From positions 29,270 to 93,269 of the forward strand of contig CAYQWA010000014.1 of the NCBI GenBank assembly GCA_964421215.1: 64,000 bases of DNA. The letters run 5' to 3'. The stretch's first letter is position 1, and every line of letters starts with the position of its first letter. This stretch comes from an uncultured Bacteroidales bacterium. Its GTDB lineage: Bacteria > Bacteroidota > Bacteroidia > Bacteroidales > JAADJA01. Below are positions 466 through 45,905 of the stretch, in pieces. Under the pieces are notes generated by a model, which saw only the letters and a program-made list of their open reading frames with translations, was not told where the DNA came from and searched no databases. A program made the position numbers and the translations under genes.

Positions 466-558
466 AACTATTGTTTTGTTGGCCATAACTTCTACTGTTT
501 TAATCGATTAACAGCTCGAAGTTATGACTTCAATAGTTCAGTAAATCCTTTTTTTACG

Positions 559-1003: not shown

Positions 1004-2503
1004 TTAATTCTTAATGAACTTTCCAGTCCAAAAAACACGATTTGAATGAATATACTGAAGGTAAAACATTCCATTTGGATAACTAGAAACATTAACCTGT
1101 ATACTTTCTGAATTCATAGGCACATTAATTTCTTCAACTTTAACTCCTTGTAAATTATAAATTCTAAAGCACTTATCTCCTTCAACAGAGAGTTCTGAAC
1201 CTTGTATAAAGAATTCTCCTCTTGTAGGATTTGGCCAAACCTTTAGTTCTTTTCCTTCCATTTGAGTTAGTTCAAAAACCTGTACCCCAGTTGCACACCC
1301 CGGTGTATCACAGCCCATGCTGTCTAACTTTATGATCCACATGTTGGCGTGAGTTGAAGTTTCATTTGCCTGGCCGATGGCAATATATCCATTGTCACTA
1401 GTTATTGATACATCATTAAGGTAATTTACATCCCACAAATTAGAAAAATAATAATAGTCATGGATCCAAACACTGTCCAAATTATTATCCAATTTTAAAG
1501 ACCAACCAGTAAAATTTGCCGAAGCTACGGAATCTGTAATATAGGAAAAACCAGTGCACATATAACCGCTATTTATTTTTTTAAAGTTTTTAATGTACCT
1601 ATCAAGCCTGACATCTCCATATTTTCTTTCCTCAATAATATTGCCAACTGAATCAATATTATATATCACAAACTTCCCAATTCTATTATCTGAAGAATAT
1701 ATATATTCACCGTAAATCATTGCGATTAAGTAATTCCCGTCATCTGCCAATTCAACAAAAGCCATATCATCATCTACTTCAGGATTGCCATAATAATGAG
1801 TCCATTGTTCGTTTCCTAAGCTGTCAGTTTTTACTACCATAGCATCCAGCGAGTGATCAATTCCTGGTTTCCAGAAATAGCCACCTATCAAGTATCCACC
1901 ATCTGGTGTTTGGATTACATTCTGACCATGTTCAGCCCACTCATCACCATAGGTCTGGTGCCACAGATAATTTCCATTTTCATCTGTTTTTAATAATATG
2001 GCATCAGAATAGCTTGATTCATCATACCAAACCCATCCCGTTAATAGAAACCCGTCCTGGACTTCTGTAGCATTTATAATTACATTATTATATTCCGGTG
2101 AGTAATATTGAGTCCAGATTGTATCAAGGTCTGTATCCAATTTCATTAATCGGCCATAAGAAACTCCACTTATTGATAAATGATAACCAATACAATAATT
2201 ACTATCCGACATTAACTTCATAGCACCACCGACATTTCCAGGATAATAATTATGATTTGGTTCGTCTAAAATTTTCCAATTCAGTATCTCCCCATAATAA
2301 TTCATTTTAAAGAAAACAAGTCGCTGTGGACTAGTTATATCCCAGATAGATGCATATCCGACGTACTCCTGCCCGTTGTCAATTATTGAAAATCCCTCAA
2401 TACCTAAGATGCTATCAGAATAAATCTCATTAAAGTATATTGGTTCTTGTGCAGATAACAATATTGAACAATAGAATAAAATTGTAATAAGAATGATCTT
2501 CAT
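1004..2503 (-). CDS. Secreted beta-propeller-like repeat protein with T9SS type-A C-terminal sorting domain
   Basis: 499-aa ORF with a signal peptide (MKIILITILFYCSILLSAQ). It has repeated D-G-G-Y-L-I-G-G / DNGYIAIGQ-type units. The C-terminus, KVWPNPTRGEFFIQ...GMFYLQY...GKFIKN, is typical of Por/T9SS CTDs. Confidence 0.75.
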   Translation of the reverse strand: MKIILITILFYCSILLSAQEPIYFNEIYSDSILGIEGFSIIDNGQEYVGYASIWDITSPQRLVFFKMNYYGEILNWKILDEPNHNYYPGNVGGAMKLMSDSNYCIGYHLSISGVSYGRLMKLDTDLDTIWTQYYSPEYNNVIINATEVQDGFLLTGWVWYDESSYSDAILLKTDENGNYLWHQTYGDEWAEHGQNVIQTPDGGYLIGGYFWKPGIDHSLDAMVVKTDSLGNEQWTHYYGNPEVDDDMAFVELADDGNYLIAMIYGEYIYSSDNRIGKFVIYNIDSVGNIIEERKYGDVRLDRYIKNFKKINSGYMCTGFSYITDSVASANFTGWSLKLDNNLDSVWIHDYYYFSNLWDVNYLNDVSITSDNGYIAIGQANETSTHANMWIIKLDSMGCDTPGCATGVQVFELTQMEGKELKVWPNPTRGEFFIQGSELSVEGDKCFRIYNLQGVKVEEINVPMNSESIQVNVSSYPNGMFYLQYIHSNRVFWTGKFIKN

Positions 2504-2521
2504 ATTACAAATATAATAAAG

Positions 2522-2549
2522 GAAACCGGATTTTCAATAATCCGGTTTC
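2522..2549 (-). terminator. Intergenic stem-loop between the two T9SS cargo genes
   Basis: A perfect 10-bp stem GAAACCGGAT / ATCCGGTTTC with an 8-nt loop. On the minus strand it is followed by CTTTATTATATTTG, which is T-rich and also contains TATATTTG, a TAnnTTTG-like -7 box just upstream of the 2503 start. Confidence 0.55.
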
Positions 2550-2560
2550 TTTAATAAATA

Positions 2561-5500: not shown

Positions 5501-7714
5501 ATCATAATCAATGGCAATATCCGTCATCCAACCAGTTGTACCCTCAAATGCTCCTAAGTCAACCCAATCATTTGCTCCGGTTCCACCCCCCGTATTGGAT
5601 TTAAACACTCTTAATGGTATAGTGGGTTCATCTCCCTTGCCTCCTCTCCAAATGACGTAAATAATGTTCGGATTAGTTTCACTAATTTCGATTCTCCACG
5701 TTGATGGATCATCCCATTCTGTATTGTCAACAATTTCAATTTGATTTTCAAACCTTTCCCACCTTTCCCATTCACCATTAACGAATTTTTTAAGTCCCCA
5801 TTTCTTAGTATTCCAATTATTTGTATTTTCTCGTTTTAATTCATTCCCACAAACCAAGATTTCAGATGGATTCCCAGGATTAATAGTAAAATATGTTCTC
5901 CAATTCGGAACATTTTCTGGTTTAGGTGTGAAAAAGGAAAAGTTTTCACCTCCATCTTCGGAATATCTACAGGAAAAATGCTGAGCAGTAACATACATAT
6001 TTTGTCCAGTGGTATTGTCCATATCCGGTTTAAAACCATCACCACTTTGAACATGTCTTTCTGCCCAGGTTTTGTCTTCTCTCAATTCATAGATGTTTGA
6101 TCCATTATCATGTTGACCACTTAATAAAACATTCCTATTCTCTTTAGAAGTGGCAATATCATAAACTGTAGCTACAGCAAGACCATTGTTCATCTCCTGC
6201 CAATCATAATTTTCTGAGGGATTTGTATGGTCAAGAACAGTTTTATAAACACCCCCGTCATTTCCTACCCATAAAACGAGATCTTCACCTTCCGTCACTA
6301 TTTCCATGAAGTGTTGATCAACATGGATTTCCATATCGAAATAGTGTTCAGCAGTTATAAGACTCCAAGTACAAAATCCCTCATCCAACAAGTCGGAAGC
6401 CGCATAAATCGGTGCAGTGTTTCCGTGTACCATCCATAATTTTTCACCCACTTTCATTGGTGCAATTGCCCACCCTAAACCACGTTCAGGATTTACACCG
6501 GCATTACAAACGGTGGCTCCTTCTTGAATAGGTAAAGCACCTTTATCTACATAAACATCATTTACAAGGTCATATCTAAATAATCTACTATTCCAATCAT
6601 TATTTAGCTCCGGATCCCACATCATGTTAAAACTAACGACGATAAATAGATATTCAGGAGCAGCTGGAGAAAATTCGATTGTAATTCGTCGATTAGAGGT
6701 GTTATCCGTTGGATCGGGTAGAAAATCAAGATTTGGCAGAAAATTACATTCAGTTGGATTCGCCTGATAATCTATAACCCTAACCGAAGTAGAGCCAGTA
6801 CCGGATGCATAGATTAGGTTGGTCGATGGATCCGGATGCACCTCAATGTCATAAAAATTTCCTGAACATACTTCTTCCCAAACTGGAAATGGCACTAATG
6901 CATCTTCACATTCATAGAGACCTTTGTTCGTTACAACAAATAAATGTACTTTTCCGGGATCAGTAGGAATCGAGATTATTTTTCGCATTTGATGTATCTT
7001 ATTCCCTCCTAATGTCTCGTTTAATCCGATATATTCCCAATCCTCTCCCCCATTTGTGGTTCTCCATACACCAATAGCATTTTGCCACCATAAATGGCCA
7101 GGCATACCTTCTGCACAACCAGTTGTAATGAACCAATTGTCATCGGGATTATGTTCATCAATTGCGATAGATGAAACACCAGAAATCGGTAACTCCAGGT
7201 CTGTTCCACCATTTGTCCAGGACTCTCCACCATTATCTGATACAAATAAGCCGCCAGCTGGGGAGCATGCAAACATTTTGCTATTTATTGGTGGGGCATA
7301 TCTCGGATCAAATTCAATGTAATGTATTTGACCAAGACCTTTAATACTATTTTCATTATTGCCAGGATTCATCTGATAACCATCTTCAGGCATCCTATCG
7401 GGACCAATTAGTTTCCAGTCTAGTACATCACTTGTGTTATCACCATTTTCGATAAATTCGTTCAGATAGTTAGAAACTCCATTGTACCATATTGAAAAGT
7501 CACCATGTGGATACAACTTAGGTTCCCAATAATCTGCTTTTCTCATATATGGATTGTAACCTGTTCCTTGCATACTGTCTAAACCTCTAATCTCGATTAT
7601 AGAATCAAAATAAGTATCCCATGTGGCTTTGATTGTATAAAAATTAGAAGTGTCTTGGGAATATCCAACTGAAAGCAAGACACCAAGGAGAATTGATAAA
7701 ATAGTTTTTTTCAT
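2561..7714 (-). CDS. Giant secreted multidomain protein: BNR/Asp-box propeller region + right-handed beta-helix-like region + helical region + T9SS CTD
   Basis: 1717-aa ORF with a signal peptide (MKKTILSILLGVLLSVGYSQ). Asp-box-like motifs: SDNGGESW, TTNGGEDW, GNDGGVYKT, SEDGGENF. The middle part is G/N/I-rich beta-helix-like repeats. The C-terminus, VNIYPNPADEYIVIDL...GVYLIRT...KATIKR, is a T9SS CTD. Confidence 0.75.
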   Translation of the reverse strand: MKKTILSILLGVLLSVGYSQDTSNFYTIKATWDTYFDSIIEIRGLDSMQGTGYNPYMRKADYWEPKLYPHGDFSIWYNGVSNYLNEFIENGDNTSDVLDWKLIGPDRMPEDGYQMNPGNNENSIKGLGQIHYIEFDPRYAPPINSKMFACSPAGGLFVSDNGGESWTNGGTDLELPISGVSSIAIDEHNPDDNWFITTGCAEGMPGHLWWQNAIGVWRTTNGGEDWEYIGLNETLGGNKIHQMRKIISIPTDPGKVHLFVVTNKGLYECEDALVPFPVWEEVCSGNFYDIEVHPDPSTNLIYASGTGSTSVRVIDYQANPTECNFLPNLDFLPDPTDNTSNRRITIEFSPAAPEYLFIVVSFNMMWDPELNNDWNSRLFRYDLVNDVYVDKGALPIQEGATVCNAGVNPERGLGWAIAPMKVGEKLWMVHGNTAPIYAASDLLDEGFCTWSLITAEHYFDMEIHVDQHFMEIVTEGEDLVLWVGNDGGVYKTVLDHTNPSENYDWQEMNNGLAVATVYDIATSKENRNVLLSGQHDNGSNIYELREDKTWAERHVQSGDGFKPDMDNTTGQNMYVTAQHFSCRYSEDGGENFSFFTPKPENVPNWRTYFTINPGNPSEILVCGNELKRENTNNWNTKKWGLKKFVNGEWERWERFENQIEIVDNTEWDDPSTWRIEISETNPNIIYVIWRGGKGDEPTIPLRVFKSNTGGGTGANDWVDLGAFEGTTGWMTDIAIDYDNPDHFYVAQENYIYFCNSENSGTPIWTEYNNFPANQSYKIYALGFVNGSSDKSLYVGTNYGLFYINENLVEFENVSGNLPHVPIRDLEINSGKKTIAVGTFGRGVWEADLPCNYNPVPEIIEGVVNYELEHHAYSDIVINSGGVLNITGTLFMGEGRSIKVKRGGLLVIDGGTISNECAGMWQGIQVWGDPTKAHTFPNQGKVIIRNEGRIEMAKYGIRTVKVDGSGQEEIEFVDLKYSGGIVNIVNADFHNNFNSILFYRYPAAGFSYESGNFIYSSDFTIDINYPIEQGEVTFISMREIDKVRLNGNNFSNNSKIYQYGTGIKSFNSTFFVDGLCLGGNPCEEWEYGEFFNLNYGIYSTASSSIYYTDIRHTKINDTYYGIYCGSLSNARITSNEFFFYKDSPVDSWGLYLDSSTGYHVEDNEFINVYGAQYWGIGIIINDSREPMNEIYNNYFEKLRIGTSAQNCNRSILQQDGLKIRCNNYVMNNRDIYVTAEPGCVLPGISYNQGAPGATDMQAGNTFSLHNTFPLVGPEFSDYENIDLLDAQITYYHHFHEPVNIVPEYRSPEPFIILENEGTFYEKTQSCPSGISGESGGSAGGDHREGMAENKIAADSVQSIFLELIDGGNTVLLEQQVLQSMPPEAYEVYMSLSNKSPYLSDSVLIAALEKEDVLPNVLIKDILVANPQSAKSQEVMDKVEEKSQPFTQEMLAEILLGKYMVAAKEKLEAQRGMYNHKRAMALNNLKRYYLADTINVNSFDSLIVLLEEEAGLHEKYELVFSYIKNNQFTEAMDVFGMIPTQYILDGQQQNFYDDLINYLEVVEELHIADTGIYGLTEIQKEILIEMADNNQTNAAAYSRNILVHLGEYDYSEPVLMPDDGMKSNSINETKKVAPKSFSKVNIYPNPADEYIVIDLLIGNVEGARVDIYDIQGRQIKTFNIDGQKQQQILSVKDIPTGVYLIRTYCGGKTIGVEKATIKR

Positions 7715-8135
7715 TTTTTTGGTTTTGATGATTTATATATAATCTGAATTTCTCTTCAGACTTCTTCTAATGAATAAATTGTGATCTATTAATTAAGAGA
7801 CACCTCCTTTCTTCAAGATATTTATTACGCAAAAAATATAGGTTCTAAATATTTGCAAAGTTTAGTAGAAAATGGAAATACTGCTATATCCATTTATTCC
7901 ATACAATAGTCGAATACGTTTAACTATTATTTATTGTTAGATTCTTATTGTTTTTAAGAACTTTAAGTTTATTTTTTTGGGGGTATAAATCTACTATACC
8001 CATAATTAAAAGTCAATCCCTGAAAACCACCAAAATTTTTCATAGCTGAAAACCACTAGATAAGATATATGGGATTAAAAATTAACCATCTACAAAAGGT
8101 GGTTTGTTAGCCCAAATATTTGAGCATTTTGAATA

Positions 8136-8151
8136 CTTGTTTATAAACAAG
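8136..8151. repeat. 16-bp perfect palindrome CTTGTTTATAAACAAG
   Basis: Read directly from the sequence; it is its own reverse complement. It lies in the ORF-free 7715-8573 region, 19 bp from the tandem GTGTATCAAAT repeat. Confidence 0.8.
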
Positions 8152-8169
8152 GTAGATGGAAATATAAAT

Positions 8170-8192
8170 GTGTATCAAATCGTGTATCAAAT
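8170..8192. repeat. Tandem direct repeat GTGTATCAAAT x2 (12-bp period)
   Basis: gtgtatcaaat c gtgtatcaaat occupies 8170-8192. It resembles, in inverted orientation, the tandem TTAGTACACA x2 at 9730-9750. Confidence 0.75.
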
Positions 8193-8227
8193 AAAAAGCA
8201 GTTACATTTCAGATAAACATAACTGCT
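8189..8227 (-). terminator. Rho-independent terminator immediately after the tRNA-Ala 3' fragment
   Basis: Minus strand: AGCAGTTA-(15 nt)-TAACTGCT followed by TTTTTATTT, starting 12 nt after the tRNA fragment's discriminator base. Confidence 0.6.
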
Positions 8228-8239
8228 AGATTTTCTGTG

Positions 8240-8286
8240 TGGAGCATATCGGAGTCGAACCGATGACCTCTTGACTGCCAGCCAAG
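8240..8286 (-). pseudogene. Orphan 3' half of a tRNA, anticodon GGC (Ala-like); the 5' half is absent
   Basis: Minus strand: CTTGG-CTGGCAG-TCAAG (anticodon arm, anticodon GGC), AGGTC (variable loop), ATCGG-TTCGACT-CCGAT (T arm), ATGCTCC-A (acceptor 3' strand plus discriminator). U at position 70 would allow the G3:U70 Ala identity pair. The upstream sequence has no D arm or matching 5' acceptor strand. Confidence 0.7.
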
Positions 8287-8573
8287 TTAAAGAGGAGAAA
8301 ATGAATGAAAAGCGCAGAAATTGTAGCAGAATCTTATAGAATCCTAGTTGTTGTTTTAAAATGAATCTGATTATCCTATTGGAAAGACTTTTGTATTGAG
8401 TGATTTTTATAGTGTAGTAGGAGTTTACTGTGGTCCTGATAATTGCTTTAATATGACATCTAGTTCACCTCAATCTAAAAACAACTGTTTAATAAATTTC
8501 CAAAACCACAATGATAGCGTGTTGGAGTGATAAATGTATTATCACAGAATGATTACTAAAACGTAGTTTTAGT

Positions 8574-9719
8574 TTATTTACCCCACTTTTCCATCTCCGA
8601 GTTTAAATAATCCATCTCATATTTTGTGTAGATCTTCGTTGTTTTGATATCAGTATGGCCAAGGATCTTGCTGATCACATCATAATCAATTCCCATTGAC
8701 TTTGAAATAGTCGCAAAAGTGTGCCTGGCACAGTGAAAGCTAATTTTCTTGTTTATTTTGACTTCTTTGATAATATCCTTTAAGTAACGGTTTGTTGGTT
8801 GATCAGTTAAAACATTAAATACAGGTTGATATTCAAATCCTTTCTCCGGAACAAGGTTCTTCGCTTTCTTTGTTAATGGGATATTTACGAACTCTTTTGT
8901 TTTTCCCATTTGTATTGAAATTAAACTTCCTTCTTTGATGTCTTTGAATCGGAGATTTTTAACATCCTGGTATCGAAGTCCGGTATAACAGCTAAACAAA
9001 AAGTATTTCAACACATTTTGCCTGTTTTTCTTTAAAGTTTCTTTCGAATATAACTCTTCCAGTTTACGAAGCTCTTCTACGGAAAGAAATTCACGTTCTC
9101 CAACTATTCTTTTGAGCTTATAGTCATGAATTGGGTTTTCTTCGATAATATTTTGTGCAACAGCTTTGTTTAAGATTTGTTTGATGAAGATTATTGACTT
9201 GACAACTGTGTTTTTATTATTGTTTCGTGTATTGATAAGGTATTGCTCATATCTATAAATAAATCGTAAGTCAATTTCTGAGAATGACAAATCCGATTTG
9301 AATTCTCTCATTTTATTAACCTGATCATTATAGTTTTTGAGGGTTCCTTTGGTTAGCTTTCCATCTAAAAGCTGTATCTGGTCTTGTACAAATTCATAAA
9401 AGGAATCTTTGTTTATATGGTTGGATTCAAATTCCTGCCTAAACCTATCAAAGGTTATTAATTGGTCGGTGATCCGGAAAGTATGAATTATCTTTTGTGC
9501 TTTTAGCCTATAGTGTTCTATTAGGTTGTTTTTATCATCATGATATGGATCTGCCTTAGATATGATTCCTGATTTGAAATGATTGGGATTTGCATAAATA
9601 TTTAATCGAAAATATTTATGTCTTCGATCAATAGTAATTCTAAGAAATATATTCCTGGTTTTGTCCTTCCTGGTATAATCCTTTTGGACAACATTAATTG
9701 TACAATTTGTTTTTGACAT
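8574..9719 (-). CDS. Tyrosine site-specific recombinase (phage-integrase family, Bacteroidota type with N-terminal arm-binding and SAM-like domains)
   Basis: 381-aa ORF. Catalytic signature: YTGLRYQD (Arg), HCARHTFAT (His-x-x-Arg), LGHTDIKTTKIYTKY (His ... Tyr nucleophile). It lies 132 bp from the tRNA-Cys 3' end in the same orientation. Confidence 0.9.
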   Translation of the reverse strand: MSKTNCTINVVQKDYTRKDKTRNIFLRITIDRRHKYFRLNIYANPNHFKSGIISKADPYHDDKNNLIEHYRLKAQKIIHTFRITDQLITFDRFRQEFESNHINKDSFYEFVQDQIQLLDGKLTKGTLKNYNDQVNKMREFKSDLSFSEIDLRFIYRYEQYLINTRNNNKNTVVKSIIFIKQILNKAVAQNIIEENPIHDYKLKRIVGEREFLSVEELRKLEELYSKETLKKNRQNVLKYFLFSCYTGLRYQDVKNLRFKDIKEGSLISIQMGKTKEFVNIPLTKKAKNLVPEKGFEYQPVFNVLTDQPTNRYLKDIIKEVKINKKISFHCARHTFATISKSMGIDYDVISKILGHTDIKTTKIYTKYEMDYLNSEMEKWGK

Positions 9720-9729
9720 TGCTTAAAAA

Positions 9730-9750
9730 TTAGTACACAATTAGTACACA
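9730..9750. repeat. Tandem direct repeat TTAGTACACA x2 (11-bp period) directly upstream of the integrase start
   Basis: ttagtacaca a ttagtacaca occupies 9730-9750, 11 nt from the integrase ATG (9719). On the minus strand it reads AAATGTGTACTAATTGTGTACTAAT. Confidence 0.75.
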
Positions 9751-9811
9751 TTTTGCCAAAAACATTGAAATCTGGAGCTTCAATTATTAGACTTATCCTT
9801 TGCTATAAGCC

Positions 9812-9843
9812 AAAAAATGAGACAATTGTTTCAAAATTGCCTC
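9812..9843 (-). terminator. Rho-independent terminator of tRNA-Cys
   Basis: Minus strand: GAGGCAATT-TTGAAAC-AATTGTCTC (9-bp stem, one G.U pair) followed by ATTTTTT, 8 nt after the tRNA 3' end. Confidence 0.7.
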
Positions 9844-9851
9844 ATTCTCAG

Positions 9852-9923
9852 AGGTCTCGAGCGGATTCGAACCGCTGTAAATGGTTTTGCAGACCACCGC
9901 CTAAGCCACTCGGCCACGAGACC
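9852..9923 (-). tRNA. tRNA-Cys (anticodon GCA)
   Basis: Minus strand: GGTCTCG TG GCC-GAGTGGCTTA-GGC G GTGGT-CTGCAAA-ACCAT TTAC AGCGG-TTCGAAT-CCGCT CGAGACC T. This gives a full 72-nt cloverleaf with anticodon GCA and U73 discriminator (a Cys identity element). CCA is not encoded. Confidence 0.9.
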
Positions 9924-13382: not shown

Positions 13383-15851
13383 ATGAATGTTGAGCGAAGT
13401 GAGATGAAAAATTGCCGGATTATAACTTTAAAAGGTGTAATGACAAAATTGATTTATAGAATCCTAATGCCATTCCTGCTGGTGATGTTGCCACTGGTTT
13501 CTGTTTCACAGAATGTTACCATTTCAGGATACATTGAAGACCAGGCAAGTGGTGAAAAACTACTTGGGGCCAATGTGTTTAACGGTAAAACCTACCAGGG
13601 CACAACAACCAACAATTATGGTTTTTACAGCTTTACCCAGGGAACTGGTGAAATGGCCCTCAGGTATTCGTTTGTGGGTTATCAAACCATTGAGATCAAC
13701 CTCGATTTATCCCGGGATACAACCATTAATGTTGCCTTAAAGCCTTCCGTTGAATTAGAGGAGGTTGTTGTGGAGGGCAACAGAATAGAAAACTCGGTTA
13801 AAAGTTCTCAAATGAGTGTAACGGAATTGCCCATACAGGTTGTGAAATCGCTGCCTGTTTTTATGGGTGAGATCGATATTATTAAAACCATACAATTGTT
13901 ACCCGGAGTACAATCCGGAAGTGAGGGAACAAGCGGATTGTATGTCAGGGGAGGAGGTCCGGATCAAAATTTAATCCTGCTTGATGGGGTACCTGTATAC
14001 AATGCCAATCACCTGTTCGGGTTCTTTTCCGTATTTAACGCTGATGCATTGAACACGGTAAAGCTTGTTAAAGGTGGATTTCCGGCAAGGTATGGCGGAA
14101 GGCTGTCTTCTGTACTGGACATCCGGATGAAAGAGGGTAATTCCAAAGAATTTCATGGGGAAGGATCCGTTGGCTTAATTGCCACAAAACTAACCCTTGA
14201 AGGGCCCATCGTAAAGGACCAAACCTCCTTTATAGTATCCGGCAGAAGAACATACATTGATATTCTTGCACAACCCTTTATAAGGTTAGCCAATAAACAA
14301 GAAGGGTATAAGACCAATGGCGGCTATTACTTTTATGACCTCAACGCAAAAGTCAATCATAAATTTTCCGATAAAAGCCGGTTGTATTTGAGTTCTTATA
14401 TGGGTAACGATAAAGCCTATGCAAAAGACGAATATACGGGTGGGCAGTATTATGACAAGAATAAATTTGGTTTACGTTGGGGAAACATTACAACATCACT
14501 TCGCTGGAACTACATGTTCAACAACAAGTTGTTTGCCAATGCCAGGGCCTCTTACAGCAGGTACAAGTTTATTGTAAGTGAACAATTCAAATACGAAGAC
14601 GATGATTTTAAAGAGGATTTTCAATTTGAATATTTTTCCGGAATTGATGACGTTGCCGGAAGTATTGATTTTGATTACGTTCCCAACACTTCGCATTATA
14701 TTCGGTTCGGAGCCAGCAACATTTACCACACCTTTAATCCGGGTGTAAATGCTTATTCTGTTTCCACTGAAGACTCTTTCAACAACGATATCGATACTAC
14801 CTTTGGAAATACCAAAATCTTTGCCCACGAAATTGATGTTTACATCGAAGATGACATTAATATCAGAACAAGATTCAAAACGAACATTGGTTTACATTTG
14901 TCAGGTTTTAAAGTTGGTGATAAATTCTATACATCCGTCCAGCCGAGGATTTCAGCCAGGTATTTGATTTCAGAAAAATGGTCGGTTAAGGCGTCATATG
15001 CTAAAATGAGCCAGTACATACATCTGTTGTCCAATACTTCCATTGGCCTTCCAACCGATTTATGGGTGCCGGTTACTGAAAATATAGAGCCTATGGAATC
15101 GGACCAGGTAGCTATAGGCTCTGTTTACAACATTAATGAAAGCTATGAGGTACAGGTTGAAGGATTTTATAAATGGATGCACAACCTGATCACTTATAAA
15201 CCCGGAGCAAACTATTTCAGTGCAAATGATACATGGCAAAGCCTGATTACAACAGGCGATGGATGGAGTTATGGGGCAGAGTTCTTGTTTAAAAAGAACC
15301 TTGGACAGGTAACTGGATGGGTCGGATATACCCTGTCCTGGTCGGAGCGACAGTTTGATGAGGTTGGCGAAGAAAGATATCCGTACAGGTATGACCGCCG
15401 CCATGATGTTTCAGTGGTGGTTTCCTGGAAGAAAAATGAAAAGTTTGATATCGGAGCTGCCTGGGTTTACGGTTCTGGCAACGCTGTTACCCTTCCTTTT
15501 GATAAATACCTGTCCCTGGATAATTATAATAATTACCTCGGTTATGGTGGTGGATATTACTATATCAGTGAACTACCCTACATCGAAAATGTAGAGAACA
15601 GGAACAATTACCGCCTGCCTGCCTACCACAGACTGGACCTTGGATTCAATTTTCATAAAAAGCTTAAATGGGGAGAACGAACCTGGAGTGTTGGTATTTA
15701 CAATGCCTATTTCAGGCAAAATGCCTTTTTTGTTTATATCGATAACCAGTACGACTATTATTCAAGCTCAACCAATCCTCCTGATAAAGTATTGAAACAG
15801 GTAAGCTTATTTCCTGGAATTCCCTATATAAACTACAGCTTTAGATTTTAA
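13383..15851 (+). CDS. TonB-dependent receptor with N-terminal CarboxypepD_reg-like domain
   Basis: 822-aa ORF. The more likely start is the ATG at 13440, which gives signal peptide MTKLIYRILMPFLLVMLPLVSVSQ. It has the VTISGYIEDQASGEKLLGANVF carboxypeptidase-regulatory fold motif, a plug region (GLYVRGGGPDQNLILLDG) and a C-terminal aromatic residue (…NYSFRF). Confidence 0.85.
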   Translation: MNVERSEMKNCRIITLKGVMTKLIYRILMPFLLVMLPLVSVSQNVTISGYIEDQASGEKLLGANVFNGKTYQGTTTNNYGFYSFTQGTGEMALRYSFVGYQTIEINLDLSRDTTINVALKPSVELEEVVVEGNRIENSVKSSQMSVTELPIQVVKSLPVFMGEIDIIKTIQLLPGVQSGSEGTSGLYVRGGGPDQNLILLDGVPVYNANHLFGFFSVFNADALNTVKLVKGGFPARYGGRLSSVLDIRMKEGNSKEFHGEGSVGLIATKLTLEGPIVKDQTSFIVSGRRTYIDILAQPFIRLANKQEGYKTNGGYYFYDLNAKVNHKFSDKSRLYLSSYMGNDKAYAKDEYTGGQYYDKNKFGLRWGNITTSLRWNYMFNNKLFANARASYSRYKFIVSEQFKYEDDDFKEDFQFEYFSGIDDVAGSIDFDYVPNTSHYIRFGASNIYHTFNPGVNAYSVSTEDSFNNDIDTTFGNTKIFAHEIDVYIEDDINIRTRFKTNIGLHLSGFKVGDKFYTSVQPRISARYLISEKWSVKASYAKMSQYIHLLSNTSIGLPTDLWVPVTENIEPMESDQVAIGSVYNINESYEVQVEGFYKWMHNLITYKPGANYFSANDTWQSLITTGDGWSYGAEFLFKKNLGQVTGWVGYTLSWSERQFDEVGEERYPYRYDRRHDVSVVVSWKKNEKFDIGAAWVYGSGNAVTLPFDKYLSLDNYNNYLGYGGGYYYISELPYIENVENRNNYRLPAYHRLDLGFNFHKKLKWGERTWSVGIYNAYFRQNAFFVYIDNQYDYYSSSTNPPDKVLKQVSLFPGIPYINYSFRF

Positions 15852-15882
15852 AGGGGTGGATAACCGTAAAGTCCGTTTTAAA

Positions 15883-15989
15883 TGGTTCACGCAAAGAATA
15901 CAAAGTTAAACAAAGGTCGCAAAGTATAAAATCTGAAATATTATCTTTTGCGCTCTTTGCACTTTACTTAGCGCCCTTTGCGTGAAACA
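15883..15989. repeat. ~107-bp imperfect palindromic element rich in CAAAG/CTTTG, with termini TGGTTCACG ... CGTGAAACA
   Basis: Left arm: tggttcacgCAAAGaataCAAAGttaaaCAAAGgtcgCAAAGt. Right arm: cttttgcgctCTTTGcaCTTTacttagcgccCTTTGcgtgaaaca. It sits between convergent genes and probably acts as a bidirectional terminator-like hairpin. Confidence 0.7.
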
Positions 15990-16012
15990 TAATATTAATC
16001 AACATCTTAGTA

Positions 16013-17986
16013 TTAGTCTACCTTAACAAATTTCCTTGAAAACTCATTGTCTCCGTTCGAAACATTGATCAGGTAATTGCCTGATTGTATATCTTCAATA
16101 TTCAGGTTCAAATGAATATCATCTGTTTTAACAGTTTTTACCAACGCACCGGATAAGCTGTATATATCGATGGTATTTTCAGTTCCGATGGAATTCTTAA
16201 ACTCCATGTGAAGGTAATCATTTGCAGGGTTTGGCCCGAATGTAAAGAAAGCGGGATTAGCTGAATCTATAACGTTGGTCGAAATGGAACCGGTTTTATT
16301 TAACACCCAGTTATCCGGGTCGATCTGGATCAGTCCGATATCTTCAGTAATAGGTAACATAAAAGAGTTTACATTATCGGTCTGGTAGAGCTGAACTGTG
16401 GTATCTCCTCCGCTGTAAAAATGGAATTTGTATTCCATAAGCATTTCGAAAACAGGTGTTACTGAAGCTGCTGACACAGTTTGTTCTATTTCAAGGTAAA
16501 GGTAAGCATCATCCTGGCTCCAGCTGATGTTATAGGTTGGGTATCCTTCTCCGAAATACCATTGATCGAAAAACTGGGTGAAGTCCATTCCGGAGGTTTC
16601 ATTCAGTACATTCATAAAGTCAAGGCCGGTAGCTACGTCATCAACATACTCTTCCTGGAAATTCTGGAGAACCTGGAAAAACAGATCATCATCCTGAAGC
16701 TCAAAACGGATCATATGAATGATAGCTGCCCCTTTGTTGTAAGAAAGGCGACCATTGAATATTCTCCAAACATTGTCATAGGTTACTTCATCCTCAGGAA
16801 CAAAAACACTTCCATCCGGTTCACTCATCACTGAATTGTGGATCCCGTTCATTTTGTTGTTGGCAGCTGCCTCACCAAGGATAAACTCATTGGCCAGGTA
16901 GTCGGTATAAGTTGCAAAACCTTCGTTTACCCAGATATCACTCCATGTGGCGCAGGTAACATTATCGCCGAACCACATGTGCCCAAGTTCGTGGGCGACA
17001 AGACCAAATGAAAATCCACCCATTGTACTCATGGTCTGATGTTCCATACCACCACCCAAATCTGTTAAACAATGGCCGTATTTTTCTTCATGAAAGGGAT
17101 AAAGTGTATACAGGTCTGAAAAAAGTTCGACCATTTCTACTGTCTGGTCGATTCCATCCTGGTAATATTCAAGGCAACCAGGAACGTCGTAAATGAAATT
17201 CTGGATCAAAAGCGGATCACCACCCATTCCTGCCGGGTATGCATAAATATTGTATTCCTGGTATTCGCTAACAGCAAAGGAAATCAGGTAGTAGGCAATG
17301 GGGTAATTCGACTTCCATTCATACCTTACTTTGTTATCAGGAAGATTTACGACATCTGTAAGCAATCCGTTTGATCCGGCCATATTGGCATCGGAAGTGG
17401 TCAGATAAATCCATACTGAATCGGCTTTATCTTCAAGCACCTGTTTTGTTGGCCACCAGTCGCGTGCAGCGAAAGGTTCAGATAAAGTCCAGGTTACGTT
17501 TTTACCCCATGAGTCGTAAGATGTTGAAATCCCTGTAAAAAACCCTCCTGATGGTGGAGCGCCGCTGTAAACTATTTTAACTGTAAACATCTCGCCCTGA
17601 GAAACAGGATTTGACACTAATACAAACCCCTCATCTCCTGCCTGATAAAATGATTCTGAGACTCCATTAAATAGAACTTCGCTCACTGTTAAATCGTCAA
17701 GTAATTCAAAAGCAAATGTGTCGAGTTCGGCAACAACAACTTCAGCGTTAAAAGTCACTTCACCTGAAACAAAGACAGATGAATTGGAAACTTCTATATC
17801 GATGAAATAATGTTTTACATCATAATCGAACAAAAGTGGTGTTTGAGGTACGTCTTTCGACTGTTTAAAATGCTCTTTAAAAAATCTTGCTTTGCTGCAG
17901 GTCAATTCATCGTGATCATGATGATGTTGTGCTATGCTCATCATCCCGAAAGCAACAACAAAGATCGAAAGTAATAAATGTTTCAT
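16013..17986 (-). CDS. M1-family zinc aminopeptidase with T9SS CTD (paralog 1)
   Basis: 657-aa ORF with a signal peptide. Zinc site: HELGHMWFGDNVT ... WVNEGFATY (HEXXH-18-E). The C-terminus FGPNPANDYLHMEF...GNYLINV...KFVKVD is a T9SS CTD. Confidence 0.85.
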   Translation of the reverse strand: MKHLLLSIFVVAFGMMSIAQHHHDHDELTCSKARFFKEHFKQSKDVPQTPLLFDYDVKHYFIDIEVSNSSVFVSGEVTFNAEVVVAELDTFAFELLDDLTVSEVLFNGVSESFYQAGDEGFVLVSNPVSQGEMFTVKIVYSGAPPSGGFFTGISTSYDSWGKNVTWTLSEPFAARDWWPTKQVLEDKADSVWIYLTTSDANMAGSNGLLTDVVNLPDNKVRYEWKSNYPIAYYLISFAVSEYQEYNIYAYPAGMGGDPLLIQNFIYDVPGCLEYYQDGIDQTVEMVELFSDLYTLYPFHEEKYGHCLTDLGGGMEHQTMSTMGGFSFGLVAHELGHMWFGDNVTCATWSDIWVNEGFATYTDYLANEFILGEAAANNKMNGIHNSVMSEPDGSVFVPEDEVTYDNVWRIFNGRLSYNKGAAIIHMIRFELQDDDLFFQVLQNFQEEYVDDVATGLDFMNVLNETSGMDFTQFFDQWYFGEGYPTYNISWSQDDAYLYLEIEQTVSAASVTPVFEMLMEYKFHFYSGGDTTVQLYQTDNVNSFMLPITEDIGLIQIDPDNWVLNKTGSISTNVIDSANPAFFTFGPNPANDYLHMEFKNSIGTENTIDIYSLSGALVKTVKTDDIHLNLNIEDIQSGNYLINVSNGDNEFSRKFVKVD

Positions 17987-17998
17987 GGTTTTTGATTT

Positions 17999-19999
17999 TT
18001 AATGTTTAACTATTTTTTCAATTGTTTTTCCTTTGTCGGATTCAATGATTAAAAAGTACACTCCTGATTCAAAGGATTCAAGATTAATATGTGAATTAAA
18101 ATTTTCGGTGGCAAATGTAAGCATTGTTTCACCATTCAAATCAACGATGGATCCTGTAAATGCTCTGTTATAATCAGATTGTATATGAAGGACATCAACT
18201 ACCGGGTTTGGAAATGCCAAAATATCAATTATCCCTGAAAGTTCGGGAATGTTATTAATACTTTCCACTTGTTTTAAAACCCAGAGCTCCGGATCTATCT
18301 GAATGCTGTCAACACCCGTATTAATATTGACAGTTTTTGTTACCAAAGGTTGCGTATGTTCAATAGCAATGGTGGTGTCGGTATTGTCATCAAAAAAGAT
18401 CTTAACAGGCAAATCCATTTCAAAAAAGGGAGTCACCTCCGGAACTGATGCACTCTGCTCCGATATGATCTCAAGTACATTATCCGAATAAGCCCAGTCA
18501 ATATTGTAAAGAGGAAATCCTTCGCCAAAAAACCACTGGTTAAAAAATTCAGTAAAATCCTGACCGGTTGTGCTGTTTAAAACATCAATAAAATCCTGGC
18601 TGGTGGCCACACTATCTTTGAACTGAACCTGAAAGTTTTTAAAAGCCTGAAAAAACAGTTCATCATTGTTCAATTCGTAACGGACCATATGCAAAACCAA
18701 TGCGCCCTTAAAATAAGTCAGCCTGCTGCTGAAGATCCTGTTTTCGTTCCCGTATTCAACTTCTTCTGGTGGTACGTAAACACTGCCATCCGAAATGGAT
18801 GTTACATAATTGTGAGCGCCTTTTAACCATTTTGGCGCATAAATGCTAGCCGCTACTTTTTCGTGGGCTAGATAATCCGAATAAGTCGCAAATCCTTCAT
18901 TGACCCATATATCACTCCAGGTAGCACAGGTAACATTGTCGCCAAACCACATATGTGCCAGTTCATGAGATACCAATCCCAGGGCAAACGGAGTACCGAT
19001 GGTGGTCATGGTTTGATGTTCCATTCCACCAGAAAGCATGGTAATACAATGTCCATACTTCTCTTCGTAAAACGGGTACAAAGTATATAGGTCAGAGAAA
19101 AGTTCAATGAGTGTTGAAGTCCGGTCAAGCTCCCCCTTGTGGTACTCCAGACATCCAGGAGTATTGTATACAAAATTCTGCACCAGTATTGAATCTCCGG
19201 CCATTTCTTGAGGCTTTGCATAGATGCTGTAGTCCTGGTACTCCGCCACCGCATAGGATATCAGATAATAAGCGATGGGATAATTCGATTTCCATTCGTA
19301 CCTGACCTTATTATTTGGCAAGTTGACCACATTGGTGAGCATACCAACAGAGCCAGCCATGTTATCTGAACTTGTTGTTAAAAATACCCATACCGAGTCT
19401 GCCTTATCTGTCAGAACCTGTTTGGTAGGCCACCATTGACGGGCATTAAAAGGTTCCGATAAAGTCCAAACAACAGATTTGTTCCAGGTTGAATCGTAGG
19501 CCAGTGTAACACCATTAAAAAATTCACCCTCAGGAGGAGTGCCATGGTAATAGATTTGAGCCGTGAATTGCTGGCCCTGTGTGATCGCCGATGAGAGAAT
19601 TGAAAACACCTCATTGTCAGACCTGTAATAATCAGTTAATGTATTGTTTATCAGAATGGAATCCAGGACCATGTCATCGATGAGCTCAAAAGCGAAAGTA
19701 TCCAGCTCCTCGGTTTTCACTTCCGCAATGTATTTTACATTGCCTTGCAAATAGGTAGTGTTGTTCTCAATGTCCAGGTTGAAATGATAAAATTTAACAT
19801 CATAATCATGCAACAAAGGGGTCTGAATAATGTCTTTTTGGTTTTTGTAAGATTGAAAACGTTTAGTACGTGAACATTTATGGTTTTCGTCAAATTGAAA
19901 AACTGCCTGAGCCACAGATGTTGAGCCGATCAAACATATCGTTAAAATAAGCGTTGTTAGTAATGTGAATATCCGGGTTCGTTTTAAATATTTTATCAT
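17999..19999 (-). CDS. M1-family zinc aminopeptidase with T9SS CTD (paralog 2)
   Basis: The ORF track gives 17999..20035. The likely start is the ATG at 19999 (MIKYLKRTRIFTLL...). Zinc site: HELAHMWFGDNVT ... WVNEGFATY. The C-terminus AFPNPVVDVLHIQ...GVYFLII...KIVKH is a T9SS CTD. Confidence 0.85.
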   Translation of the reverse strand: MIKYLKRTRIFTLLTTLILTICLIGSTSVAQAVFQFDENHKCSRTKRFQSYKNQKDIIQTPLLHDYDVKFYHFNLDIENNTTYLQGNVKYIAEVKTEELDTFAFELIDDMVLDSILINNTLTDYYRSDNEVFSILSSAITQGQQFTAQIYYHGTPPEGEFFNGVTLAYDSTWNKSVVWTLSEPFNARQWWPTKQVLTDKADSVWVFLTTSSDNMAGSVGMLTNVVNLPNNKVRYEWKSNYPIAYYLISYAVAEYQDYSIYAKPQEMAGDSILVQNFVYNTPGCLEYHKGELDRTSTLIELFSDLYTLYPFYEEKYGHCITMLSGGMEHQTMTTIGTPFALGLVSHELAHMWFGDNVTCATWSDIWVNEGFATYSDYLAHEKVAASIYAPKWLKGAHNYVTSISDGSVYVPPEEVEYGNENRIFSSRLTYFKGALVLHMVRYELNNDELFFQAFKNFQVQFKDSVATSQDFIDVLNSTTGQDFTEFFNQWFFGEGFPLYNIDWAYSDNVLEIISEQSASVPEVTPFFEMDLPVKIFFDDNTDTTIAIEHTQPLVTKTVNINTGVDSIQIDPELWVLKQVESINNIPELSGIIDILAFPNPVVDVLHIQSDYNRAFTGSIVDLNGETMLTFATENFNSHINLESFESGVYFLIIESDKGKTIEKIVKH

Positions 20000-20013
20000 T
20001 TCTGACTGATGTT

Positions 20014-20021
20014 TATCTTTG
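20014..20021 (+). promoter_or_regulatory. Candidate -7 promoter box (TATCTTTG) for the 20089 gene
   Basis: The plus strand reads TATCTTTG 68 nt upstream of the TTG start at 20089. It is intergenic only if the M1 paralog starts at 19999. Confidence 0.3.
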
Positions 20022-20088
20022 CTTCGCGGAAACAAAATATATTTTCAATCGATTCCGTTTAATTCAGTAAGTAAAACACTTCGTTCAT

Positions 20089-23956: not shown

Positions 23957-24394
23957 GTGAGCAATTCATCCATCCTTTTCTTCTCAGAAGGTATAAAGTT
24001 TATCTTAAGAGAAAAAAAGAGGTTAAGAATTTGGTTAAATGCTTCCATAGCTAATGAAGAAAAAAGTTATGGAAGCATTAATTTTATATTCTGTTCCGAT
24101 GATTTCTTACACCAGATGAACAAAGAGCATCTGGACCACGATACATTAACGGATATCATTACATTTGATTTCTCCGAAACGCCACATAATATCTCCGGCG
24201 ATATTTACATAAGCATCGACAGGGTAAAAGAAAATGCTAAACAATTCAATGTTTCTTTTGTTGATGAACTTCACAGGGTAATGATACATGGTATCCTTCA
24301 TCTGTCAGGGTATAAAGACAAAACGAAAAAGCAATCCCTGACGATGCGTGCCAAAGAGGATTATTATTTATCTTTGCTGCCCGAAATTTCATAG
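23957..24394 (+). CDS. ybeY: rRNA maturation endoribonuclease YbeY
   Basis: 145-aa ORF with the zinc-binding motif HRVMIHGILHLSGYKD (H-x-x-x-H-x-x-x-x-x-H). Confidence 0.85.
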   Translation: MSNSSILFFSEGIKFILREKKRLRIWLNASIANEEKSYGSINFIFCSDDFLHQMNKEHLDHDTLTDIITFDFSETPHNISGDIYISIDRVKENAKQFNVSFVDELHRVMIHGILHLSGYKDKTKKQSLTMRAKEDYYLSLLPEIS

Positions 24395-24398: not shown

Positions 24399-24414
24399 TG
24401 TTTCACGTGAAACA
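24399..24414. repeat. 16-bp perfect palindrome TGTTTCACGTGAAACA (copy 1)
   Basis: Read directly. It lies 4 nt after the ybeY stop and 7 nt before the mnmG start. Confidence 0.9.
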
Positions 24415-24421
24415 ATTTTAA

Positions 24422-26296
24422 GTGTTTAAAGAATATGACATAATAGTTGTAGGGGCTGGTCATGCTGGTAGTGAAGCTGCCGCTGCCGCTGCTAATATGG
24501 GATCTTCAGTATTGCTCATTACGATGAATATGGGGAATGTTGCACAGATGTCATGCAATCCTGCTATGGGAGGAATTGCAAAAGGCCAGATTGTTAGGGA
24601 AATCGATGCCTTAGGAGGGTATTCGGGAATTGTAACTGATAAAACGATGATACAATTTCGGATGCTCAATAAATCCAAGGGACCTGCAATGTGGAGCCCC
24701 AGAGCCCAAAGCGACCGTATGCTTTTTTCTATGGAATGGCGCGAAATGTTGGAGCGAACTCCAAACCTTGATTTCTGGCAGGATATGGTGGTAGGACTGA
24801 TTTCTAAGGAGAATAGAATTCATGGAGTTAAAACTTCAATGGGACACGAGATTTATTCTAAAGCGGTTATACTTACAAATGGAACATTCCTGAATGGTAC
24901 CATACATATAGGAAGTAAAAAGTTTGGAGGAGGCAGAATAGGGGAGAAGGCTTCCCAGGGAATTACCGAAGAATTAATAGAGTTAGGTTTTGAAGCTAAA
25001 CGAATGAAAACTGGAACTCCTGTTCGTGTGGATGGAAGAACAATTGATTTTGAGAAGCTGGATGAACAACCTGGTGATGAAGCACCTGGTAAGTTTAGTT
25101 TTACAAATACGCCCAATTTAGAAAAGCAAAGGAGTTGTTACCTGGCTTATACGAATGACGTTGTGCATGATGTACTTAAAACAGGATTTCATGAATCTCC
25201 TATGTTCAATGGAAGAATTGAAGGTACTGGACCTCGGTATTGCCCATCCATAGAAGATAAGATTGACAGGTTTGCAGATAATACAAGGCACCAGTTGTTT
25301 GTTGAACCGGAAGGCTGGAATACCATAGAATATTACATTAATGGCTTTTCCTCCTCATTACCCGATCATGTTCAGTACAAAGCGTTGCAAAAAATTCCAG
25401 GATTCGAAAATGCAAAAATATTTAGGCCAGGGTATGCTATTGAATACGATTACTTTCCTCCTGTTCAATTGAATTATACCTTAGAAACAAAACTGATCTC
25501 AAATCTTTATTTTGCCGGCCAGATCAATGGTACAACAGGCTATGAAGAAGCAGCAGCTCAAGGCCTGATGGCTGGAATAAATGCTCATTTGAAAAATAAT
25601 GAAAAAGAACCTTTTATACTTGGACGGTCTGAGTCTTACATTGGCGTTCTGGTGGATGATCTGATCACAAAAGGTGTGGATGAGCCATACAGGATGTTTA
25701 CTTCTCGTGCAGAATACCGCATACTACTCAGGCAAAACAACGCGGATTTACGTCTGACGAAAAAATCTCAGGAGATTGGATTGGCATCTGAGGAAAGGAT
25801 GAACAAGGTTGAGGAGAAGCTGGATTTAATAGGCCGGTTAAAAAAATACCTCCTTCAAACAAGTATAATTCCGGATGATGTGAATGAACTTTTTGATAGA
25901 AGAGGTACATCTCCTATGGCCCAAAAGGGAAAGCTTGCTAATATATTATTACGTCCTCAATTGTCATTAACCGATCTGTATGAAACATTGCCACAGCTAG
26001 AAAACTTTGTTAATTCCATGAATCCTGAATTAAAAGAGGAGGTTATGGAAGAAGTGGAAATTCAGATAAAATATGGCGGCTACATCGAAAAAGAAAAGGA
26101 ACTGGCTGGGAAGATTGATAAATTGAACGATCTAAAGTTGTCAAGCGACTTTGATTATTTTCAATTGCCATCACTATCCTATGAAGCTCGCGAGAAACTA
26201 AGCAAACTAAAACCATTAACACTTGGCCAGGCTTCCAGAATTGCAGGAGTCTCACCTGCAGATATTTCAGTATTAACCGTTTACCTTGGACGTTAA
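24422..26296 (+). CDS. mnmG: tRNA uridine-5-carboxymethylaminomethyl(34) synthesis enzyme MnmG (GidA)
   Basis: 624-aa ORF with a GTG start. It has the FAD-binding motif [15 protein letters not shown], plus [11 protein letters not shown] and [16 protein letters not shown], all typical of MnmG. Confidence 0.92.
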
Positions 26297-26300
26297 CCAT

Positions 26301-26316
26301 TGTTTCACGTGAAACA
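26301..26316. repeat. 16-bp perfect palindrome TGTTTCACGTGAAACA (copy 2)
   Basis: Identical to copy 1. It lies 4 nt after the mnmG stop and 9 nt before the methyltransferase start. Confidence 0.9.
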
Positions 26317-26325: not shown

Positions 26326-27213
26326 ATGGAAAAAATAACATCTTGCCCTTTGTGCGATTCTCAAGGCTTTGTTCCTTTTGTTGAAACCAGGGACCATTTT
26401 TTAACCGGAGAACCTTTTACAATTTCCGAATGTACAAATTGCAAATTCCTTTTTACGAATCCCCGGCCGGAGGAATCCAAAAGTGCTCAATATTATAAAT
26501 CGGAAGAATACATTTCACATTCGAATACGGATCAGGGAATTATCAGCAGAATATATAAACTGGTTCGTAATTATTCCTTATCAAAAAAAGTAAGGCTTAT
26601 AAAGAAGTTTGTAAGGGGAGGATCTGCCCTCGATATTGGCTGCGGTACGGGTCATTTTCTTTCCGTATTGGCAAAAAACGGTTTTGAGGTTACCGGTGTT
26701 GAACCTGGAGATCAAGCCAGGAATTCTGTCAGAGCTCAATTCGGTATAGATGTTTACAATTCCCTGGAGCCACTAAAGAGTTCTGATAAAAAATTTGAAG
26801 TAATTACATTGTGGCATGTGCTTGAGCACATTTACCCCTTAAAAGAGAATGTTAGGCAAATTTCCGGCATGCTCTCTGAAAATGGCATTTTAGTTGTAGC
26901 AGTTCCAAATCCAGAATCTTATGATGCAAAACATTATAATGAATTTTGGGCGGCATATGATTTGCCCCGGCATTTGTATCATTTTAAAAAATCGGACATA
27001 AAGAAACTATTTTTAGATCTCAATTTCGATCTGCTGAAAACATTTCCCATGAAATTTGATTCCTATTATGTGAGTCTGTTAAGCGAAAAATACAAATCTG
27101 GAAAGAACAATTACATGAAGGCATTTTTTACGGGTTTGAAATCAAATTGGATCGCGAGCTCAAAAAATAATTATTCGAGTTTGATCTATGTCCTGAAGTT
27201 AAAAAATAGCTAA
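26326..27213 (+). CDS. Class I SAM-dependent methyltransferase with N-terminal Cys4 zinc-ribbon
   Basis: 295-aa ORF. It has CPLCDS...CTNCKF, then SAM motif I (ALDIGCGTGHF). Confidence 0.7.
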   Translation: MEKITSCPLCDSQGFVPFVETRDHFLTGEPFTISECTNCKFLFTNPRPEESKSAQYYKSEEYISHSNTDQGIISRIYKLVRNYSLSKKVRLIKKFVRGGSALDIGCGTGHFLSVLAKNGFEVTGVEPGDQARNSVRAQFGIDVYNSLEPLKSSDKKFEVITLWHVLEHIYPLKENVRQISGMLSENGILVVAVPNPESYDAKHYNEFWAAYDLPRHLYHFKKSDIKKLFLDLNFDLLKTFPMKFDSYYVSLLSEKYKSGKNNYMKAFFTGLKSNWIASSKNNYSSLIYVLKLKNS

Positions 27214-44687: not shown

Positions 44688-45905
44688 ATGAAAGTGGACG
44701 CGGCCGGAAAGTTTTTCATTGTTCTTATTGCCTTTCTTATGGCAACATCTGTCCATGCTCAGGATAAAAAGAAAGAACTACAGAACAACAAGAAAAAGAT
44801 CGAGGAAGAGATCCAGTACAATTCCCAACTTTTGGAGGAAACCAAAAAATCAAAAAAAACCACATTGAATCAACTGATTATCCTAAAGCAACAGATCGCT
44901 TCACGTGAAAAGCTGATTCAGAATATGAACGATCAGATCAAGACTACTGATGATCAAATCCAATTGAACAATGAAATTATCAATGACCTGAAAAAGGACA
45001 TGGAAAACCTGAAGGATGAATACGCAAAAATGATCTATTATGCTTATAAAAATAAAAGCTCATTTGATCGCCTGATGTATATTTTCGCAGCATCTGATTT
45101 TAACCAGGCTTATCGCAGGATCAAATATTTTCAACAGTATGCCAATTACCGTAAAACTCAGGCTGACTTAATTGTAAAAACACAGGAGGAGATCAATTCA
45201 TCCATCGATGAGCTTGAAGCCTACAAAAAAGAGAAGCTTGAATTGGTAACCACCCTTAAAGAGGAGGTTGCCGAGCTTGCTGGTGCCCGTTCTCAGCAAA
45301 ATTCTGTTTATTCTACACTGAACAGGAAAGAAAAAGAGCTTGCGAAAACCATCAGGGAAAAAGAAAAAGCTGCAAAAAAGTTGCAAAAGGAAATCGAAAA
45401 GATCATTGCTGAAGAGATCAGGCTGGCAGCAGAAAAAACGGGAACAACAAAATCAGGGGTATTTGCTTTAACACCTGCAGAAATGCAATTGTCAGCAGGT
45501 TTTGAAGAAAACAAAGGCGGCCTACCCTGGCCCCTTGAAAAGGGAATAATATCAAGTACATTTGGAGAACATGCCCATCCCGTTCTAAAACGGGTTAAAA
45601 CAAAGAACAATGGGATCGATATTCTTACCGACCAAGGCATGAAAGCCCGTGCGATCTTTGGCGGAGAAATAACCCGTGTCATCAGCATCCCTAATTATAA
45701 CTATGTAGTAATGATCAGGCATGGCGAATACCTCTCGGTATATTCCAACCTGGTGGAAGTGTACGTTCAGAAAGGACAAAAGGTGAATACAAAAGACGAA
45801 CTGGGAAAAATATTTACCGATAAAAAAGAGTCCAAAACTGAACTTCATTTTGAATTATGGAAAGGAAAAACCCTGCTTAATCCTTCCAATTGGTTAGCGA
45901 AATAG
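44688..45905 (+). CDS. Coiled-coil + degenerate LytM (M23) domain protein, EnvC-like murein hydrolase activator
   Basis: 405-aa ORF with a signal peptide and ~250 aa of coiled coil. It has a C-terminal LytM fold, but the metal ligands look substituted: KNNGIDI in place of HxxxD, and ELHFELW in place of HxH. Confidence 0.7.
   Translation: MKVDAAGKFFIVLIAFLMATSVHAQDKKKELQNNKKKIEEEIQYNSQLLEETKKSKKTTLNQLIILKQQIASREKLIQNMNDQIKTTDDQIQLNNEIINDLKKDMENLKDEYAKMIYYAYKNKSSFDRLMYIFAASDFNQAYRRIKYFQQYANYRKTQADLIVKTQEEINSSIDELEAYKKEKLELVTTLKEEVAELAGARSQQNSVYSTLNRKEKELAKTIREKEKAAKKLQKEIEKIIAEEIRLAAEKTGTTKSGVFALTPAEMQLSAGFEENKGGLPWPLEKGIISSTFGEHAHPVLKRVKTKNNGIDILTDQGMKARAIFGGEITRVISIPNYNYVVMIRHGEYLSVYSNLVEVYVQKGQKVNTKDELGKIFTDKKESKTELHFELWKGKTLLNPSNWLAK

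Follow-up and report, generated by a model that had tools for sequence, protein, structure and literature searches.

Two predicted chromosomal parS sites bracket mnmG in an uncultured Bacteroidales genome, an arrangement conserved across Bacteroidota

In the genome of an uncultured Bacteroidales bacterium, the gene mnmG (also known as gidA) is bracketed by two identical copies of a perfect 16-bp palindrome, TGTTTCACGTGAAACA, both of which lie in the 64-kb stretch of DNA analysed here in full (hereafter, the window). Judged by their sequence, both copies are very probably chromosomal parS, the centromere-like sites of the ParABS segregation system, and the pair is an element of a known type, not a new kind of signal. 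We observe that the bracketing of mnmG by parS, uncoupled from parAB, is conserved across Bacteroidota, which is a mildly new increment, with no description of parS placement in this phylum found in the literature searched. To our knowledge, chromosome segregation has hardly been studied in Bacteroidota.

The first site (24399 to 24414, no strand assigned) occupies the 27-nt gap between the ybeY endoribonuclease gene (23957 to 24394, plus strand; Pfam YbeY, E = 1.9e-26) and mnmG, which encodes the tRNA uridine 5-carboxymethylaminomethyl modification enzyme (24422 to 26296, plus strand; Pfam GIDA, E = 7e-163, together with both C-terminal MnmG domains). It begins 4 nt past the ybeY stop and ends 7 nt ahead of the mnmG GTG start at 24422. 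The second site (26301 to 26316, likewise without strand) is an exact copy in the 29-nt gap between mnmG and the gene for a class I SAM-dependent methyltransferase (26326 to 27213, plus strand; Pfam Methyltransf_23, E = 2.7e-27), 4 nt past the mnmG stop (26296) and 9 nt ahead of the methyltransferase ATG (26326). The two sites are thus 1.9 kb apart. They are the only exact copies of TGTTTCACGTGAAACA in the window, and no further match with up to three mismatches was found in the 82 kb made up of the window and its contig extensions. Given the base composition of the window, 2.5e-5 exact copies would be expected by chance per 64 kb versus the two observed, and a chance origin of the pair is excluded. 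The sequences adjoining the first copy (gagag before, atttt after) bear no relation to those adjoining the second (accat before, ttcaa after), and the repeated unit is therefore exactly the 16-mer. The initial annotation had pointed to identical palindromic 16-mers in short gaps on either side of mnmG and had considered them unlikely to arise by chance; the copies, their coordinates and all four spacings are confirmed, and the chance expectation bears out its second point.

Several lines of published work connect this sequence to ParB. Both copies match the parS consensus tGTTNCACGTGAAACa without a mismatch, and TGTTTCACGTGAAACA itself is given as the parS consensus for genome scans after Livny 2007, as quoted in a paper citing that study. 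The same string constitutes both parS sites of Hyphomonas neptunium as well as the wild-type oligonucleotide bound by ParB in EMSA; it is compatible with B. subtilis parS (TGTTNCACGTGAAACA) and fits the parS consensus of Caulobacter and of Burkholderia chromosome I. With the exception of the Ori-Finder paper, all the literature in which we found the string TGTTTCACGTGAAACA deals with ParB/parS or with the ParB paralogue Noc. parS is preferred by all ParB orthologues tested from 17 species across bacterial clades, and ParB nucleates at parS and, with CTP, slides off as a clamp, spreading onto flanking DNA. Both specific ParB binding and CTP-dependent spreading have been demonstrated on the identical sequence in other species. 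The suggestion in the initial annotation that the palindromes could be bound by a dimeric regulator was therefore partly on target, in that a dimeric DNA-binding protein is indicated, but the canonical parS of a ParB dimer went unrecognised.

The mnmG-flanking pair combines a match to the consensus, clustered copies in excess of chance and the conservation of a protein site in relatives, as is seen for parS. Chromosomal parS has the same 16-bp, perfectly palindromic sequence and is likewise present in more than one copy, here clustered within 2 kb, and the location next to gidA/mnmG is that of the classical origin-region gene cluster. A difference from chromosomal parS elsewhere is that both sites sit in tiny intercistronic gaps at the exact ends of one gene. 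In B. subtilis, parS sites are mostly found inside coding sequences. Furthermore, the ParB/Noc paper depicts genomic contexts in which gidB is clustered with parB, parA and noc, whereas parA and parB are not adjacent to the sites described here.

Two related types of element differ from the pair. The Noc binding site (NBS) of Firmicutes is also a 16-bp palindrome and is read by a ParB paralogue with a CTP switch, but according to the ParB/Noc paper its half-sites each depart from those of parS at positions 1 and 6, while the sites here match parS exactly. In addition, noc is restricted to Firmicutes according to the same paper, and the host here belongs to Bacteroidota, as is also evident from the T9SS sorting domains encoded in the window. 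Metagenome scaffolds of 90-114 kb carry sequence identical to the window. The parS variants of plasmids and second chromosomes, such as that of Burkholderia chromosome II (gTTTATGCGCATAAAc), are palindromic ParB-family centromeres of similar length that have another core, whereas the sites here carry the CACGTG core of main chromosomes.

With respect to conservation, we compared 80 related mnmG loci, all from MAGs, with MnmG identities of 66-82%. These loci are labelled as Bacteroidales, Lentimicrobiaceae, Marinilabiliales, Chitinophagales, Sphingobacteriales and Flavobacteriales, with the closest ones being Bacteroidales. When a parS-like site is defined as TGTTTCACGTGAAACA with at most two mismatches, 76 of the 80 loci have one in the 150 bp upstream of mnmG, 65 have one in the 150 bp downstream, and 62 have both. 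None was found within the mnmG coding sequences themselves (149 kb over the 80 loci), and the other flanking DNA holds only 10 in 762 kb, 7 of which are located at the next gene boundaries. Unbiased counting of 8-mers in the 80-nt flanks of mnmG yields the same motif. The gaps are also alike: the median distance is 8 nt from parS to the mnmG start and 5 nt from the mnmG stop to parS, so that the typical placement in relatives matches that in the window, and the two sites are 1,893-2,040 bp apart from start to start. Gene order is largely retained as well, with ybeY as the same-strand upstream neighbour in 73/80 relatives and the methyltransferase gene as the same-strand downstream neighbour in 65/80. 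The initial annotation had proposed examining related genomes for conservation around mnmG and had named absence from the orthologous ybeY-mnmG junctions as evidence against its idea; the sites are present at those junctions, and that objection does not hold.

Some loci depart from the common pattern. A third parS-like site is found one gene outward in a few of them, at a constant distance from mnmG on either side: -674 in L022, L039 and L070 and +869 in L066, L069, L073 and L075. The Chitinophagales and Sphingobacteriales loci show two sites upstream of mnmG, at distances of approximately 48 and 107 nt, and lack a site directly after the gene. Six MAGs labelled as Chlorobiota or Omnitrophica (L008, L012, L013, L015, L018 and L074) carry mnmG loci that are 70-74% identical and have the same parS bracket. 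Because these loci are of the Bacteroidales type, the labels or the binning of these six MAGs may be unreliable.

The neighbourhood of parS and gidA extends beyond this phylum. According to the Ori-Finder paper, this palindrome adjoins gidA in Bradyrhizobiaceae as well, within the origin regions predicted there, indicating that the association is old and widespread. Its authors proposed that the palindrome there represents back-to-back species-specific DnaA boxes (TGTTTCACG) marking the replication origin, and the same could be proposed for the pair around mnmG. We give this reading next to no credence, since later biochemical and structural work assigns the sequence to ParB, and since there are only two copies here, each in a gap of less than 30 nt inside an operon and without an AT-rich unwinding region. 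Canonical DnaA boxes are nowhere clustered in the window.

The variation among relatives allows a DNA site to be told from an RNA structure. In a matrix of the 143 parS sites that flank mnmG in the relatives, positions 3, 4, 6, 7, 10, 11, 13 and 14 are invariant (143/143) and positions 8-9 are retained in 140/143. Hardly any change is seen in the CACGTG core. Variation is restricted to positions 1, 5, 12 and 16, where the published parS consensus has lower-case letters or N, so that the same positions are degenerate in chromosomal parS and in the relatives' sites. At positions 5 and 12, the pairs T-A (76), T-G (30), C-A (22) and C-G (15, with approximately 11.6 expected) are combined nearly independently. 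This conservation pattern is that of a DNA palindrome contacted by a protein, unlike that of an RNA stem.

The competing possibility is that the palindromes act at the RNA level, as hairpins in a ybeY-mnmG-methyltransferase transcript that separate the cistrons through RNase processing, attenuation or modulation of translation. In favour of this, the gaps that hold the two sites are very short and separate cistrons on one strand, the median distance from the end of the upstream site to the mnmG start codon is 8 nt among relatives, and the palindrome can fold into a 6-bp stem closed by an ACGT loop. However, the hairpin alone reaches only -3.9 kcal/mol, and the 46-nt contexts of the two sites, with z-scores of -1.4 and +0.3, fold no better than shuffled sequences. 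The would-be loop ACGT essentially never changes, given the invariance seen in the matrix, which is not expected under selection on an RNA stem, and the stem pair 5-12 includes the 22 C-A mismatches without a surplus of compensatory changes. No U-run or terminator call was obtained at either gap, and no Rfam family matches at the sites. Together with the fact that the identical sequence is a proven DNA site of ParB, these observations make a role as RNA extremely unlikely. The initial annotation was right in considering the palindrome a poor intrinsic terminator, in view of the weak hairpin and the lack of a terminator call, while its suggestion of an RNase processing signal finds no backing in a weak hairpin with an unchanging loop and a pair 5-12 that does not covary.

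Returning to parS, we observe a greater likeness between the two sites within a genome than between sites paired across genomes, with 13 identical pairs within genomes versus 6.0 expected across genomes (reached in 3 of 5,000 shuffles). This fits with one trans-acting reader per genome. Part of this likeness is due to base composition, since the usage of C5/G12 tracks the GC content of the locus (rho = 0.52).

A promoter-like motif lies close to the upstream site. The sequence TATCTTTG (24369 to 24376, plus strand), located within the 3' end of ybeY and 22 nt upstream of the first site, is part of the context and not of parS. It fits TAnnTTTG, which we take to be the -7 promoter consensus of Bacteroidota. 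In 51/76 relatives, the 60 nt preceding the upstream parS contain TAnnTTTG (background, 0.034 per 60 nt), and the motif precedes the downstream parS in only 4/69 cases. As the motif overlaps conserved C-terminal codons of YbeY (..EDYYLSL..), coding constraint and promoter function are inseparable here, and an overlap of parS with an internal mnmG promoter is possible.

This arrangement raises the question of whether the sites are operators through which some dimeric transcription factor distinct from ParB controls mnmG, or whether ParB itself serves here chiefly in local transcriptional regulation rather than in a centromere role. The upstream site does lie between the promoter-like TAnnTTTG and the mnmG start, both in the window and in the 51 relatives, and ParB-parS complexes are reported to modulate the expression of nearby genes in other species (PMC4488948). 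On the other hand, the second site is 3' of the gene, the spacing between TAnnTTTG and parS varies from 11 to 50 nt in relatives, unlike a fixed operator geometry, and Pfam scans revealed no regulator gene linked to the locus. The sequence is moreover the pan-bacterial parS consensus, down to its degenerate positions. We therefore regard an operator function of this kind as very unlikely. A related idea leaves the parS assignment intact: in Bacteroidota, the parS pair may be hard-wired to the boundaries of mnmG, within approximately 10 nt of its start and stop and without parAB, and if this were functional and not inherited synteny, the loading of ParB clamps would be mechanistically coupled to the transcription or translation of mnmG. 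We consider such coupling unlikely. If it were true, the level of a tRNA-modification enzyme could follow the cell cycle through the occupancy of the sites by ParB, or, alternatively, transcription through the sites could shape the spreading of ParB.

In another reading, the palindromes would represent the minimal form of a REP- or MITE-like dispersed repeat, akin to an element at 15883, a kinship that the initial annotation had listed among several options. In its favour, the sites are repeated palindromes in intergenic DNA, and GTGAAAC is found within the 15883 element. But the copies have the 16 bp alone in common, with unrelated flanks, there are two of them in 82 kb, and their positions are orthologous across a phylum, unlike those of mobile repeats. 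The 15883 repeat is built on TTCACGCAAAG, is devoid of the CACGTG core and occurs once. This reading is effectively refuted, and the proposed kinship falls with it, since the element at 15883 is a different, single-copy nested inverted repeat. That repeat (15882-15990) is imperfect, with outer arms GGTTCACGCAAAG and CTTTGCGTGAAAC and inner arms CAAAGGTCGCAAAG and CTTTTGCGCTCTTTG, and is found in the 160-nt gap between a convergent pair of genes encoding a TonB-dependent receptor (13383-15851, plus strand) and an M1 peptidase (16013-17986, minus strand). It has no relation to parS, and its possible identities include a bidirectional terminator and a repeat element.

Apart from the two full sites, partial look-alikes are scattered through the window. 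The 8-bp core TCACGTGA recurs at 32901 and 44901, as the initial annotation stated, yet neither place is parS-like. Two copies of TCACGTGA outside the 16-mers, versus 0.55 expected in the window, are unremarkable. The sequence at 32897 that holds the first of them, ATTGTCACGTGAGGAC, differs from parS at 7 positions. That at 44897-44912, CGCTTCACGTGAAAAG, has 4 mismatches; two of them fall on positions 3 and 15, at which the 143 real sites show no or almost no variation. The latter is 12-bp palindrome-like, lies inside an M23 peptidase gene and is probably a chance occurrence. The half-site GTTTCAC is found 15 times in the window (9.8 expected) and is not enriched, because 4 of the 15 belong to the two full parS sites.

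We then consider the proteins that would act on these sites. Pfam scans of 35 of the 53 window ORFs of at least 100 aa, comprising all non-overlapping gene-sized ones, detected no ParBc, ParA or DnaA domain. A tblastn search with a B. subtilis Spo0J query, whose identity was confirmed against PDB 6sdk and 5noc (E = 3e-121), covered the window, approximately 9 kb past each end and the 80 loci, together 1.19 Mb, and detected no ParB. Likewise, none of the 80 relatives has a ParA or ParB gene within 6 kb of mnmG. With no parA or parB found in the 82 kb or near mnmG in relatives, the sites are uncoupled from parAB in this phylum. Bacteroidota are known to encode ParAB. A Hi-C study that included two Bacteroidales genomes reported ParABS homologues and origin-located parS clusters in both. 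On these two grounds, we infer that this organism encodes a ParB, which would be expected to bind the two predicted sites.

By analogy with established work in other bacteria, from which all the following steps are taken, a ParB (Spo0J) dimer would read each palindrome through its helix-turn-helix domains, with one monomer per half-site. It would then bind CTP, close to form a clamp and slide onto the adjoining DNA. Through this sliding onto flanking DNA, the two sites, at 1.9 kb from each other, could seed one shared, ParB-rich partition complex over ybeY, mnmG, the methyltransferase gene and their neighbours, on which ParA would act to separate the sister chromosomes. In many species, such a complex additionally loads SMC condensin. 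This is the least secure step and may not apply in the phylum, since homologues of known condensins were not found in the two Bacteroidales genomes of the Hi-C study.

As parS, the pair would mark the partition (centromere) locus of this uncultured Bacteroidales genome, probably within an origin-proximal region, and a location near the replication origin is what we infer for it. The window shows no cluster of DnaA boxes, and its Pfam scans detected no dnaA gene. GC skew follows gene orientation, and GC3 skew does not differ significantly between plus- and minus-strand genes in the 82-kb stitched region (P = 0.18). In practical terms, the pair could be useful for orienting metagenome-assembled genomes and serves chiefly as an annotation aid. 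Its identity as parS also removes the false lead of a new regulatory or RNA element, and it is a modest, usable fact that most of the 80 Bacteroidota MAGs have mnmG bracketed by parS at a distance from parAB.

Elsewhere in the window, we observe several features at some distance from mnmG. A tRNA-Cys gene (9851-9923, minus strand) adjoins a gene for a tyrosine integrase (8574-9719, minus strand), past which DNA of low GC content (0.34-0.36) encodes large T9SS-tailed proteins (1004-7714). A pair of IS21-type transposase genes (Mu-transpos_C_2 and IstB) is found just outside the window start, in the approximately 9 kb beyond it (L087). Positions 1-9923 of the window and the L087 extension probably constitute an integrated island. 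According to Pfam, many T9SS C-terminal sorting domains are encoded in the window, among them those of two tandem paralogous M1-family peptidases (657 and 678 aa) encoded at 16013-20035 on the minus strand, each of which carries one.
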